A stretch of DNA of 64,000 nt, taken from sequence record OQ349392.1. One strand, written 5' to 3'. This stretch comes from Escherichia phage KIT06. A program made the translations under genes and the position numbers. This document shows, piece after piece, positions 3,407 to 4,235 of the stretch (its first letter is position 1; the number at the start of each line of letters is the position of its first letter). The notes under the pieces were generated by a model. That model was not told the DNA's origin, ran no database searches, and saw only the letters and a list, made by a program, of their open reading frames with translations.

Positions 3407-3479
3407 TGGGAATTAGCCAAGTTGGTAAGGCATAGCACTTTGACTGCTAGATGCAAAGGTTCGAGTCCTTTATTCCCAG
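3407..3479 (+). tRNA. tRNA-Gln (anticodon TTG)
   Basis: Cloverleaf folded by hand: acceptor TGGGAAT/ATTCCCA, anticodon stem TAGCA/TGCTA, loop CTTTGAC, T-loop GGTTCGAGTCC. Confidence 0.85.
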
Positions 3480-3480
3480 C

Positions 3481-3567
3481 GCGAGAATGGTCAAATTGGT
3501 AAAGGCACAGCACTTAAAATGCTGCGGAATGATTTCCTTGTGGGTTCGAGTCCCACTTCTCGCACCA
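3481..3567 (+). tRNA. tRNA-Leu (anticodon TAA)
   Basis: Acceptor GCGAGAA/TTCTCGC, loop CTTAAAA, long variable arm, encoded CCA. Confidence 0.85.
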
Positions 3568-3572
3568 AATTT

Positions 3573-3647
3573 GCGGATATCGTATAATGGGCATTACCTC
3601 AGACTTCCAATCTGATGATGTGAGTTCGATTCTCATTATCCGCTCCA
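3573..3647 (+). tRNA. tRNA-Gly (anticodon TCC)
   Basis: Acceptor GCGGATA/TATCCGC, anticodon stem TCAGA/TCTGA, loop CTTCCAA, encoded CCA. Confidence 0.85.
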
Positions 3648-3657
3648 ATTTAATTTA

Positions 3658-3731
3658 CTCCGTGTAGCTCAGTTTGGTAGAGCGTCTGCTTTGGGAGCAG
3701 AATGTCGCAGGTTCAAATCCTGCCGCGGAGA
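3658..3731 (+). tRNA. tRNA-Pro (anticodon TGG)
   Basis: Acceptor CTCCGTG/CGCGGAG, loop TTTGGGA, T-loop GGTTCAAATCC; no encoded CCA. Confidence 0.8.
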
Positions 3732-3733
3732 CT

Positions 3734-3823
3734 GGAGGCGTGGCAGAGTGGTTTAATGCACCGGTCTTGAAAACCGGCAGTCGCTCCGGCGACTCATAGG
3801 TTCAAATCCTATCGCCTCCGCCA
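3734..3823 (+). tRNA. tRNA-Ser (anticodon TGA)
   Basis: Acceptor GGAGGCG/CGCCTCC, loop CTTGAAA, long variable arm, encoded CCA. Confidence 0.85.
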
Positions 3824-3828
3824 GTTTT

Positions 3829-3904
3829 GCTGATTTAGCTCAGTAGGTAGAGCAACTCACTTGTAATGAGAAGGTCGGCGGTTCGATTCCGTCAATCAGC
3901 ACCA
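3829..3904 (+). tRNA. tRNA-Thr (anticodon TGT)
   Basis: Acceptor GCTGATT/AATCAGC, loop CTTGTAA, encoded CCA. Confidence 0.85.
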
Positions 3905-3905
3905 A

Positions 3906-3980
3906 GGCCCTGTAGCTGGAAGGTTCAAGCAAGCGACTCATAATCGCCAGATGGTGGTTCAATTCCACCCAGGGCCACCA
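3906..3980 (+). tRNA. tRNA with CAT anticodon (Ile via lysidine as in T4, or Met)
   Basis: Acceptor GGCCCTG/CAGGGCC, loop CTCATAA, encoded CCA; occupies the tRNA-Ile position of the T4 array. Confidence 0.75.
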
Positions 3981-3989
3981 AATTAATTT

Positions 3990-4076
3990 GGGGAGTTATC
4001 CCGTAGAGGTAGCGGTGTGGACTGTAAATCCATTGTCATTGCGACTCGGGTGGTTCGACTCCATCACTCCCCACCA
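3990..4076 (+). tRNA. tRNA-Tyr (anticodon GTA)
   Basis: Acceptor GGGGAGT/ACTCCCC, loop CTGTAAA, long variable arm, encoded CCA. Confidence 0.75.
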
Positions 4077-4080
4077 ATTT

Positions 4081-4155
4081 GGATGTGTAGCTCAATGGCA
4101 GAGCGATCGCCTGTTAAGCGATTGGTTATAGGTTCGAATCCTATCACGTCCGCCA
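4081..4155 (+). tRNA. tRNA-Asn (anticodon GTT)
   Basis: Acceptor GGATGTG/CACGTCC (one G-U), anticodon stem ATCGC/GCGAT, loop CTGTTAA, encoded CCA. Confidence 0.75.
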
Positions 4156-4159
4156 AATC

Positions 4160-4235
4160 CGAGGCATAGCTCAGAAGGAAGAGCAAGGACCTTCTAAGTC
4201 CTAGGTCGTAGGTTCGATCCCTATTGCCTCGACCA
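4160..4235 (+). tRNA. tRNA-Arg (anticodon TCT)
   Basis: Acceptor CGAGGCA/TGCCTCG, loop CTTCTAA, T-loop TTCGATC, encoded CCA. Confidence 0.8.

Follow-up and report, generated by a model that had tools for sequence, protein, structure and literature searches.

A T2-type ten-gene tRNA cluster in Escherichia phage KIT06 and its relation to the T4 array

The textbook tRNA set of phage T4 comprises eight genes. In Escherichia phage KIT06 (record OQ349392.1), a 64,000-nucleotide stretch, hereafter the window, carries ten tRNA genes at the corresponding locus, with tRNA-Tyr and tRNA-Asn being the two that are absent from T4. Are these two genes additions to a T4-like array, or has T4 lost them, and what would the ten genes do for the phage? 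A first-pass annotation of the sequence had described the locus as an array with two more genes than the canonical T4 set. We find that the locus is very probably an intact, endonuclease-free, T2-type tRNA cluster of a Tequatrovirus, which would be transcribed from a middle promoter, would supplement the tRNA supply of the host, and would represent the state from which the T4 set arose through homing of the endonuclease gene segB.

The array and its closest relatives

ARAGORN and the Rfam covariance model RF00005 (gathering threshold, 29 bits) were run over the whole 64-kb window. ARAGORN called exactly ten tRNA genes, all on the + strand, between positions 3407 and 4235; RF00005 recovered the same ten at its gathering threshold and no further tRNA in the window. 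From 5' to 3', with the anticodon given as RNA and as DNA and the Rfam score in brackets, the array comprises tRNA-Gln (UUG, TTG; 3407–3480; 66 bits), the class II tRNA-Leu (UAA, TAA; 3481–3567; 59.3 bits), tRNA-Gly (UCC, TCC; 3573–3647; 63 bits), tRNA-Pro (UGG, TGG; 3658–3732; 70.2 bits), the class II tRNA-Ser (UGA, TGA; 3734–3823; 62.6 bits), tRNA-Thr (UGU, TGT; 3829–3904; 72.9 bits), a CAT-anticodon tRNA (3906–3980; 59.9 bits), the class II tRNA-Tyr (GUA, GTA; 3990–4076; 30.2 bits), tRNA-Asn (GUU, GTT; 4081–4155; 74.1 bits, the best score in the window), and a T2-type allele of tRNA-Arg (UCU, TCT; 4160–4235; 66.2 bits). The CCA end is encoded in eight of the ten genes, Leu, Gly, and Ser among them, and the exceptions are Gln and Pro; the spacers are 1–10 nt long, taking the encoded CCA or the discriminator base as the end of each gene. 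All ten matches to RF00005 are full length (model positions 1–71) and range from 30.2 to 74.1 bits, nine genes scoring 59–74 bits (E values of 1e-10 to 1e-14) with tRNA-Tyr as the outlier. The two programs thus agree with the first-pass annotation on the ten genes and on their anticodons, order, and spacing. Both of the genes absent from T4 were called by the covariance model, and the covariation of tRNA-Tyr, described below, speaks against degeneracy.

Alignment with the tRNA regions of T4, T2, and T6 revealed that the window is the union of the three arrays, without an endonuclease gene. The window has the order Gln, Leu, Gly, Pro, Ser, Thr, CAT, Tyr, Asn, Arg, a 116-aa open reading frame (ORF), rnaD, and rnaC. 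In T4 (NC_000866), the order is Gln, Leu, Gly, Pro, Ser, Thr, Ile, segB, Arg, rnaD, and rnaC; in T2 (LC348380), it is Gln, Leu, Gly, Pro, Ser, a 133-aa ORF, CAT, Tyr, Asn, Arg, and the 116-aa ORF; and in T6 (AP018814), it is Gln, Leu, Gly, Thr, CAT, Tyr, segB, and Arg.

The T4 cluster resembles that of the window in its position between trna.2 and e.8, its middle promoter, its first six isotypes in order, rnaD, rnaC, and the terminator. Comparison of the individual genes revealed that (i) of the eight genes in common, just five are close to T4 in sequence, with identities of 96–100% (Gln, 73/73; Leu, 87/87; Gly, 73/74; Ser, 87/87; Thr, 73/76); (ii) Pro, CAT, and Arg are different alleles, being 84% (62/74), 65% (47/72, to the T4 tRNA-Ile), and 70% (49/70) identical to their T4 counterparts; (iii) where Tyr and Asn lie in the window, T4 has segB; and (iv) T4 has no ORF between Arg and rnaD. 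The earlier statement that the T4 array is matched by the first seven genes and Arg is thus right as to isotype, anticodon, and order, and wrong as to the sequences of Pro, CAT, and Arg; the window does not carry the same eight sequences as T4.

The CAT and Arg alleles are those of T2. Both T2 and T2L (EMBL AJ880101; LC348380; PMC2330249) resemble the window in having no segB and in carrying the block of CAT, Tyr, Asn, and Arg followed by the 116-aa ORF. The T2-type alleles of this block are nearly or fully identical in the window (CAT, 75/75; Tyr, 86/87; Asn, 75/75; Arg, 74/76), and the preceding genes are similarly close (Gln, 72/73; Leu, 87/87; Gly, 73/74; Ser, 90/90). T2 also has an ORF of ~172 aa upstream of the cluster and the preferred SegB site in tRNA-Asn. 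It differs from the window in having nine tRNA genes, with the 133-aa ORF replacing Thr, and in its Pro gene, which is a T4-type allele (62/74 to that of the window). T6 (Chihara et al. 2026, PMC13096335) shares the Leu gene (87/87) and a tRNA-Tyr of 85/87 identity with the window, and differs in having segB right after Tyr in place of Asn, in having neither Pro nor Ser, and in its T4-type CAT and Arg alleles (Arg, 49/70). The T6 gene annotated as tRNA-Thr (2344–2418 of the T6 locus) is a hybrid that starts with the 5' end of tRNA-Pro (TCCGTGTAGCTCAG) and continues as tRNA-Thr. Its structure implies that recombination between tRNA genes removed everything from the 3' part of Pro through Ser to the 5' part of Thr. 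The acceptor stem of the hybrid would be mismatched, and the gene may be non-functional.

The closest arrays are found in other ten-gene Tequatrovirus genomes. Phage 132 (MZ417521; the same ten genes are annotated in its record), RB27, RB5, ime09, and Hafnia phage IsaacDaniel have the same genes, order, and spacing as the window, and the 829-bp array is matched among them in single colinear alignments of 96–99.5% identity (IsaacDaniel, 99.5%; RB27, 98.1%). Phage 132 shares the Pro (75/75), CAT, Tyr, and Asn alleles of the window exactly; it differs in Gln (66/74), in having no ORF corresponding to that at 2796–3320 upstream of Gln, and in other, minor substitutions. Three further phages, wV7 (NC_019505), vB_EcoM_G4507, and 11B_SA_NWU, carry the same ten genes in order and an eleventh, tRNA-His, between Asn and Arg; 11B_SA_NWU has in addition an endonuclease gene between His and Arg. 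In the "two more than T4" description, the absence of Tyr and Asn from T4 stands; a set of ten is not exceptional, as it occurs in many Tequatrovirus genomes and is exceeded by the eleven genes of wV7.

Database matches place the window in the same group. Its region matches more than 1000 phage records, mostly of Tequatrovirus (T4-like coliphages), at identities of up to 97.5%, and its first 25 kb are 95–97% identical at ~90% coverage to several Tequatrovirus genomes. In 397 phage records, matches extend over at least 80% of the 829-bp array; like the other database counts given here, this one includes many near-duplicate isolates. The array is flanked by a trna.2-family ORF (2512–2802, phrog_2023) upstream and by rnaD and rnaC downstream, in synteny with T2, T4, and phage 132. 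The tRNA regions of T2L, RB1, and RB3 had already been sequenced and found to carry Met(CAT), Tyr, Asn, and Arg and no segB, with ORFs of unknown function also present in the T2L region (Brok-Volchanskaya et al. 2008, PMC2330249). The array of the window is therefore the ordinary, published T2-type (segB-less) state of the Tequatrovirus tRNA cluster.

The SegB target and the direction of change

According to the T4 annotation, the 666-bp stretch (~0.7 kb) between Ile and Arg encodes segB, a GIY-YIG homing endonuclease. The first-pass annotation had taken Tyr and Asn for extra genes that fill a spacer in T4. Their position was recognized correctly, as was their absence from T4; the spacer, however, is the segB gene, and "extra" is better read as a loss in T4. 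In mixed infections of T4 and T2L, segB homes into the T2L cluster and excludes ~1250 bp containing Met(CAT), Tyr, Asn, Arg, and ORFs, and the major, preferred cleavage site of SegB lies inside tRNA-Asn (PMC2330249). From the description in that paper (a GGTTCRANTCC motif at the 5' side, CCAR at the 3' side, and G6, A16, G18, A26, and A27 as the bases that distinguish it from the Ser site), we reconstructed the 27-bp preferred recognition site as GGTTCGAATCCTATCACGTCCGCCAAA. This sequence is found once, exactly, in the window (4131–4157, + strand; 0 expected by chance), where it runs from the T-arm of tRNA-Asn through its CCA and 2 nt beyond, and all five differences from the Ser site (positions 6, 16, 18, 26, and 27) hold against the Ser gene of the window. 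A tblastn search with T4 SegB found nothing between 3000 and 5000, that is to say, no segB in the tRNA region of the window. With this preferred site of SegB still intact within tRNA-Asn, the difference is more readily explained by a loss of Tyr and Asn in T4 than by their gain in this phage.

The mechanism would be as follows: SegB cuts preferentially in tRNA-Asn and copies itself in by gene conversion, and the flanking genes are replaced in the process. A phage whose SegB target is uncut, as in the window, would then receive segB when it infects a cell together with a phage that carries the gene. Most likely, the ten-gene array is the intact target state, and the eight-gene set of T4 was derived from it through segB homing.

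The opposite polarity, in which Tyr and Asn were recently inserted into an ancestral eight-gene, T4-like array, could appeal to the fact that T4, the historical reference, has neither gene, and to the horizontal mobility of tRNA-Tyr, which is 84–95% identical to genes of rV5-like and T5-like phages and has clearly moved at some point. Against it, the Tyr–Asn pair is matched at a coverage of at least 80% in 395 phage records and segB in 126; SegB is the element of demonstrated mobility, homing into tRNA-Asn and erasing its neighbours (PMC2330249); T6 represents an intermediate state, in which Tyr is kept and Asn is replaced by segB directly after Tyr; and replacements of tRNA genes by endonuclease genes are seen in the arrays of other relatives. 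We therefore regard a recent gain as improbable and retain loss in T4 as the preferred polarity.

Free-standing endonuclease genes recur in the array, which is a hotspot for them, and each one replaces or flanks a single tRNA gene. In RB68 and Ec_O157kw, Pro has given way to a SegB-like gene, and in Ec_O157kw an HNH gene stands in place of Gln; in T2, the gene in place of Thr is the 133-aa ORF.

The possibility that segB had moved elsewhere in the window was rejected: only two distant GIY-YIG ORFs were found (at 31.4 kb and 49.6 kb), with 53% and 38% identity to SegB over the N-terminal domain. The first, of 276 aa (31354–32184), is a seg-like free-standing homing endonuclease ORF located directly after nrdD (29544–31361; anaerobic ribonucleotide reductase); besides resembling T4 SegB at the N-terminus, it carries a NUMOD3 motif and weakly matches the I-TevI DNA-binding domain and the SegE GIY-YIG domain. 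The second, of 213 aa (49547–50188), follows a thymidylate-synthase-family ORF (48816–49556), which is probably dCMP hydroxymethylase (gene 42). The next ORF, of 280 aa (50185–51027), matches the Pfam family TAGT (TET-associated glycosyltransferase); we presume that it may be a DNA glucosyltransferase of the T2/T6 type rather than the T4 beta-glucosyltransferase.

Two unusual genes: tRNA-Tyr and the CAT-anticodon tRNA

Judging by their sequences, the ten tRNAs look functional. The gene for which this is least evident from the scores is tRNA-Tyr, with 30.2 bits in the whole-window Rfam search and 35.7 bits (E = 1.3e-6) when the region was searched alone. An E. coli tyrT control scored 53.4 bits with the same model, so class II status does not account for the gap of ~20 bits. 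In the Rfam alignment, the low score was traced to a 2-nt insertion between position 9 and the D-stem and to a longer variable arm (GUCAUUGCGAC), which exceeds its E. coli counterpart by 2 nt. The connector between the acceptor stem and the D-stem is the 4-nt UAUC (3997–4000), compared with the usual two nucleotides. A connector of the same length is present in tRNA-Tyr of T2, T6, T5, T5-like, rV5-like, and Jiaodavirus phages, and the Karamvirus copy is longer by 1 nt. This 4-nt connector explains much of the low covariance-model score, and the compensatory change at D-stem pair 11–24 supports reading the connector in this way.

Covariation was examined over 24 pairs in seven tRNA-Tyr homologues, including those of T2, T6, a Vequintavirus, two Tequintavirus phages (T5 among them), and a Jiaodavirus. 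Standard pairs are formed in 99.4% of the cells of the cloverleaf, compared with 45–61% in controls with slid partners, and both sides have changed in 7 of the 24 pairs, including D-stem pair 11–24. On this comparison of sequences, the tRNA-Tyr cloverleaf is upheld by selection across phage lineages and is not degenerate. Folding of the single sequence was uninformative: the minimum-free-energy fold is not a cloverleaf.

We also considered a decaying pseudogene barely above the detection threshold, and several observations count in its favour and against a functional gene. The whole-window score is close to the cut-off of 29 bits and far under that of tyrT; the thermodynamic fold is unremarkable, with a stability no better than that of shuffled sequence (z = −0.9); the homologue in Cronobacter phage Pet-CM3-4 is labelled "tRNA-Pseudo-GTA"; the Karamvirus homologue is not called by ARAGORN; and the T6 tRNA-Tyr has been reported to be relatively unstable (PMC13096335). 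We nevertheless find a pseudogene scarcely credible. The covariation over the seven homologues, with its compensatory changes, rules out the decay that the 30.2-bit score had raised, and the anticodon loop, T-arm, A73, and CCA are all intact. The homologue in T5 is noted in its record as an effective amber suppressor once its anticodon is changed, and the T6 and T5-like homologues rescue infection only if they are translationally functional (PMC13096335, PMC11555353).

The tRNA-Tyr genes of T5 (NC_005859, T5t22), T5-like, and rV5-like phages have a variable arm and T-arm (UUGUCAUUGCGACUCGGGUGGUUCGACUCCAUC) identical to those of the window and a connector of equal length. They differ by compensatory changes in the acceptor, D, and anticodon stems, with an overall identity of 84–95%, and lie in unrelated genomic contexts. 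The 3' half of the gene (4034–4065) is identical or one base off in T-even, rV5-like (Vequintavirus), and T5-like (Tequintavirus) phages (copies compared in the relatives' loci, L010:1506–1592, L011:1506–1593, and L014:40–127). The Thr and CAT tRNAs also have counterparts in rV5-like phages, at 86–87% identity. The sharing of these genes with rV5-like and T5-like phages suggests either horizontal exchange of tRNA genes or strong common selection across unrelated coliphage lineages.

For the CAT-anticodon tRNA (3906–3980), the first-pass annotation had left the choice between Ile (lysidine) and Met. Its sequence resolves the choice toward Ile: in all likelihood, the gene encodes a lysidine-dependent tRNA-Ile2 that would read AUA after modification of C34 by the host TilS. 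Of three E. coli K-12 tRNAs compared, it is nearest to ileX (tRNA-Ile2, CAU; 58/76), followed by the elongator metT (51/77) and the initiator metZ (48/77), and its best BLAST matches across 5,424 E. coli genomes are annotated as tRNA-Ile. Positions 1–7 (GGCCCTG) and 66–72 (CAGGGCC) form the acceptor pairs C4–G69 and C5–G68, which are required by E. coli TilS (PMC1635315), where metT instead has U4–A69 and A5–U68. The anticodon arm closely follows that of ileX: identity was noted at positions 28–42, and a count over the stem-loop gave 14 matching nucleotides of 15. Codon demand agrees with the Ile reading, as ATA is enriched 4.0-fold relative to the E. coli sample described below and ATG is at parity (0.99-fold). 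An initiator tRNA-Met was rejected: the gene has a G1–C72 pair, has neither of the initiator pairs A11–T24 and G12–C23, and has no run of three G–C pairs in the anticodon stem.

An elongator tRNA-Met reading AUG is what most database records state, and it has some evidence behind it. ARAGORN and most GenBank annotations say tRNA-Met, and the 2008 paper gives the T2L gene the same label (PMC2330249); a tRNA-Ile(CAU) left unmodified behaves as tRNA-Met (PMC1635315); and A27 and C43 of the phage tRNA are unpaired, where ileX has a G27–U43 wobble. Given the greater likeness to ileX, the TilS-required pairs, the shared anticodon arm, and the direction of codon demand, we consider it unlikely. Moreover, some phage records label the gene Ile or Xle, and it occupies the same position as the gene annotated as isoleucyl-tRNA in the T4 record. 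As a tRNA-Ile2, the gene should be annotated tRNA-Ile(CAU) instead of tRNA-Met. Its D-arm (3915–3930) has the form GCTG-GAAGGTTC-AAGC, which at face value gives G14 and C21 where A is usual and a G13–A22 mismatch; the unusual D-loop is conserved, the gene being identical in T2 and phage 132.

Expression, supply, and counter-defence

A putative T4-type middle promoter precedes the array on the + strand at 3313–3337, with a MotA box (TGCTTTA, 3313–3319) separated by 12 bp from a −10 element (TATTAT, 3332–3337). T4 and phage 132 carry the 25-bp block unchanged, and in T2 a single base is substituted, within the spacer that separates the elements. In T4, a middle promoter just upstream of the tRNA cluster gives rise to one precursor of ~1.75 kb, whose end lies past the species I RNA gene (PMC2330249). 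We infer from this conservation that 3313–3337 functions as a middle promoter. An automatic signal scan detected no convincing sigma-70 promoter for the array and no separate promoter-like site on the + strand between 3337 and 3990, which makes tRNA-Tyr the eighth gene of a shared transcript.

Downstream of the array, the homologues of the two stable RNAs lie on the + strand and are unevenly conserved with respect to T4: rnaD ("species 2" RNA, 4602–4718) is only 88.1% identical by blastn over 118 columns, and rnaC ("species 1" RNA, 4725–4863) is 98.6% identical over 139 nt. A GC-rich hairpin resembling an intrinsic terminator follows at 4914–4942 (+ strand; AGCCCCGACC-GAAA-GGTCGGGGCT, then TTTT), as recognized from sequence and fold, and is nearly identical in T4 downstream of rnaC; it is the probable end of the transcription unit. 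The automatic scan did not list this hairpin, probably because the stem may take in the first T of the run, so that the T's left over do not satisfy the rule of the scan. Taken together with what is established for T4, this arrangement points to the following scheme: a MotA-dependent promoter would drive one polycistronic precursor comprising the ten tRNAs, a small ORF, rnaD, and rnaC, and ending at the hairpin; processing would fall to host enzymes, RNase P generating the 5' ends; and Gln and Pro would receive their CCA from the CCA-adding enzyme of the host.

Two accessory ORFs on the + strand flank the tRNA genes, and PHROG assigned both only to families of unknown function, with no Pfam domain. 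The upstream ORF (2796–3320; 174 aa; GTG start; phrog_2290, E = 1.6e-68) has a counterpart in T2 (T2_138) and none in T4 or phage 132; the MotA box of the array promoter overlaps with its stop codon. The 116-aa ORF between Arg and rnaD (4252–4602; phrog_3355, E = 4.5e-54) is present in T2, phage 132, wV7, and RB68 and absent from T4; its stop codon (4600–4602) abuts the start of the rnaD match.

The supply role was addressed by comparing codon usage in 86 + strand ORFs of the window (16,545 codons) with that in 42 annotated E. coli K-12 genes (14,790 codons), the latter being a small sample. Tyr accounts for 4.61% of the codons in the window and 2.60% in E. coli (ratio 1.78, the second highest of the 20 amino acids), and Asn accounts for 5.57% and 3.76%, respectively (ratio 1.48, the fourth highest). 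The codon TAT occurs 36.2 times per 1000 codons in the window and 14.1 times in E. coli (ratio 2.6), and AAT occurs 42.9 and 13.8 times, respectively (ratio 3.1). The A-ending codons read by the other eight tRNAs are enriched 1.3- to 6-fold; besides ATA, these include AGA (6.1-fold), TCA (3.2-fold), GGA and ACA (2.7-fold each), and TTA (2.6-fold). Since 86 of the 90 ORFs of the window lie on the early strand and late-strand ORFs are scarce, 31 annotated structural genes of phage 132 (11,322 codons) served as a proxy for late genes; in these, Tyr makes up 4.14% and Asn 6.34% of the codons. The comparison of codon usage proposed in the first-pass annotation thus finds the codons of both amino acids over-represented relative to E. 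coli, with late genes represented by the proxy.

The mature tRNAs would thereby top up the host pool for the AT-rich genes of the phage. Eight of them would read over-represented A-ending codons, assuming that host TilS converts the CAT tRNA into Ile(AUA), and Tyr(GUA) and Asn(GUU) would serve two amino acids that are used 1.5–1.8 times more than in E. coli. The additional copies of these two tRNAs would also buffer the phage when defence nucleases of the host deplete them, which has been shown experimentally for the T6 tRNA-Tyr against Septu and would apply to Asn against PARIS. On this correlative evidence, compensation of supply most likely explains all ten genes.

A reading that overlaps with supply and differs from it only in the dominant selective pressure is that Tyr and Asn are kept mainly as counter-defence, replacing tRNAs destroyed by the PtuAB nuclease of Septu and retron-Eco7 (Tyr) and by AriB of PARIS (Asn, together with Thr). 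The target of Septu EcB88 is tRNA-Tyr, which it cuts in the variable arm at C48/A49, and T6 escapes by SegB-driven tandem amplification of its tRNA-Tyr; over-expression of the T6 tRNA-Tyr, which differs from that of the window at two of 87 positions, rescues infection, T6 becomes more sensitive when its tRNA region is deleted, and T4, having no tRNA-Tyr, cannot escape (PMC13096335). Against retron-Eco7, infection is rescued by Tyr tRNAs from T5-like phages, to an extent that depends on dosage and promoter strength (PMC11555353), and the tRNA-Tyr of the window has exactly the variable arm and T-arm of T5. These shared arms, with compensatory changes in the stems, indicate one type of tRNA-Tyr common to unrelated coliphage lineages. 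As for PARIS, the E. coli substrates of AriB are tRNA-Lys(UUU), Thr(UGU), and, with lower efficiency, Asn(GUU), which it cuts between positions 40 and 41 where these follow U36AAU39, and mutating positions 39 and 41 makes the T5 tRNA-Lys resistant (PMC12409363). At positions 36–41, the tRNA-Asn of the window has UAAGCG and that of E. coli UAAUCC, the differences, which are suggestive, falling at 39 and 41; tRNA-Thr has UAAUGA, with G40 as in the poorly cleaved Thr(CGU), compared with UAAUCA (C40) in E. coli Thr(UGU) (PMC12409363).

Other observations fit this reading less well. Septu also cleaves the T6 tRNA-Tyr, at C48 (PMC13096335), and the gene of the window has the same GUC48A49U context, so that any protection by Tyr would be through dosage. 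Escape of T6 required amplification driven by SegB, and the window has neither an adjacent segB nor a dedicated promoter-like site that could raise the dosage of Tyr. There is no tRNA-Lys among the ten genes, which leaves the main target of PARIS, tRNA-Lys(UUU), uncovered; the putative AriB resistance of a T-even tRNA-Asn is read from its sequence; and the codon-demand data explain Tyr and Asn without defence. We hold counter-defence as the main pressure on Tyr and Asn to be a tentative reading and favour supply. A more specific version, in which Asn (G39, G41) and Thr (G40) are AriB-resistant variants, Tyr is a buffer against Septu and retron-Eco7, and the genes from Thr to Asn form a small anti-defence cassette, appears doubtful.

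Several points weigh against compensation of supply and against the wider scheme to which it belongs. In E. coli, Tyr and Asn are read by single isoacceptor families encoded by several genes, and the corresponding phage tRNAs are not rare-codon tRNAs like the other eight. The demand argument for these two amino acids is correlative. Transcription, processing, and lysidine modification in this phage are all deduced from sequence, and the polarity of loss in T4 rests on record counts and the homing mechanism and not on a rooted phylogeny. Finally, the tRNA region has been described as not essential for phage development (PMC2330249).

As a discovery, the ten-gene array carries little weight, being a common and published state in T4-like coliphages. 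If the doubtful anti-defence cassette proved true, homing of SegB into tRNA-Asn, as in T4 and T6, would cost a phage immune evasion, through the loss of Asn or of both Tyr and Asn, in exchange for mobility and amplification, and the polymorphism of segB versus Tyr–Asn in T-even phages would be a balanced trade-off and not the neutral turnover of a selfish element. For work on phage tRNAs in counter-defence, the window offers a natural control against T4 and T6, with a Septu-relevant tRNA-Tyr that has no segB beside it and a tRNA-Asn that differs from the PARIS target at the decisive positions. Above all, the locus corrects a perspective: the textbook eight-gene set of T4 is most likely derived, a homing endonuclease having overwritten two tRNA genes, and the array of KIT06 would show the target as it stands intact.

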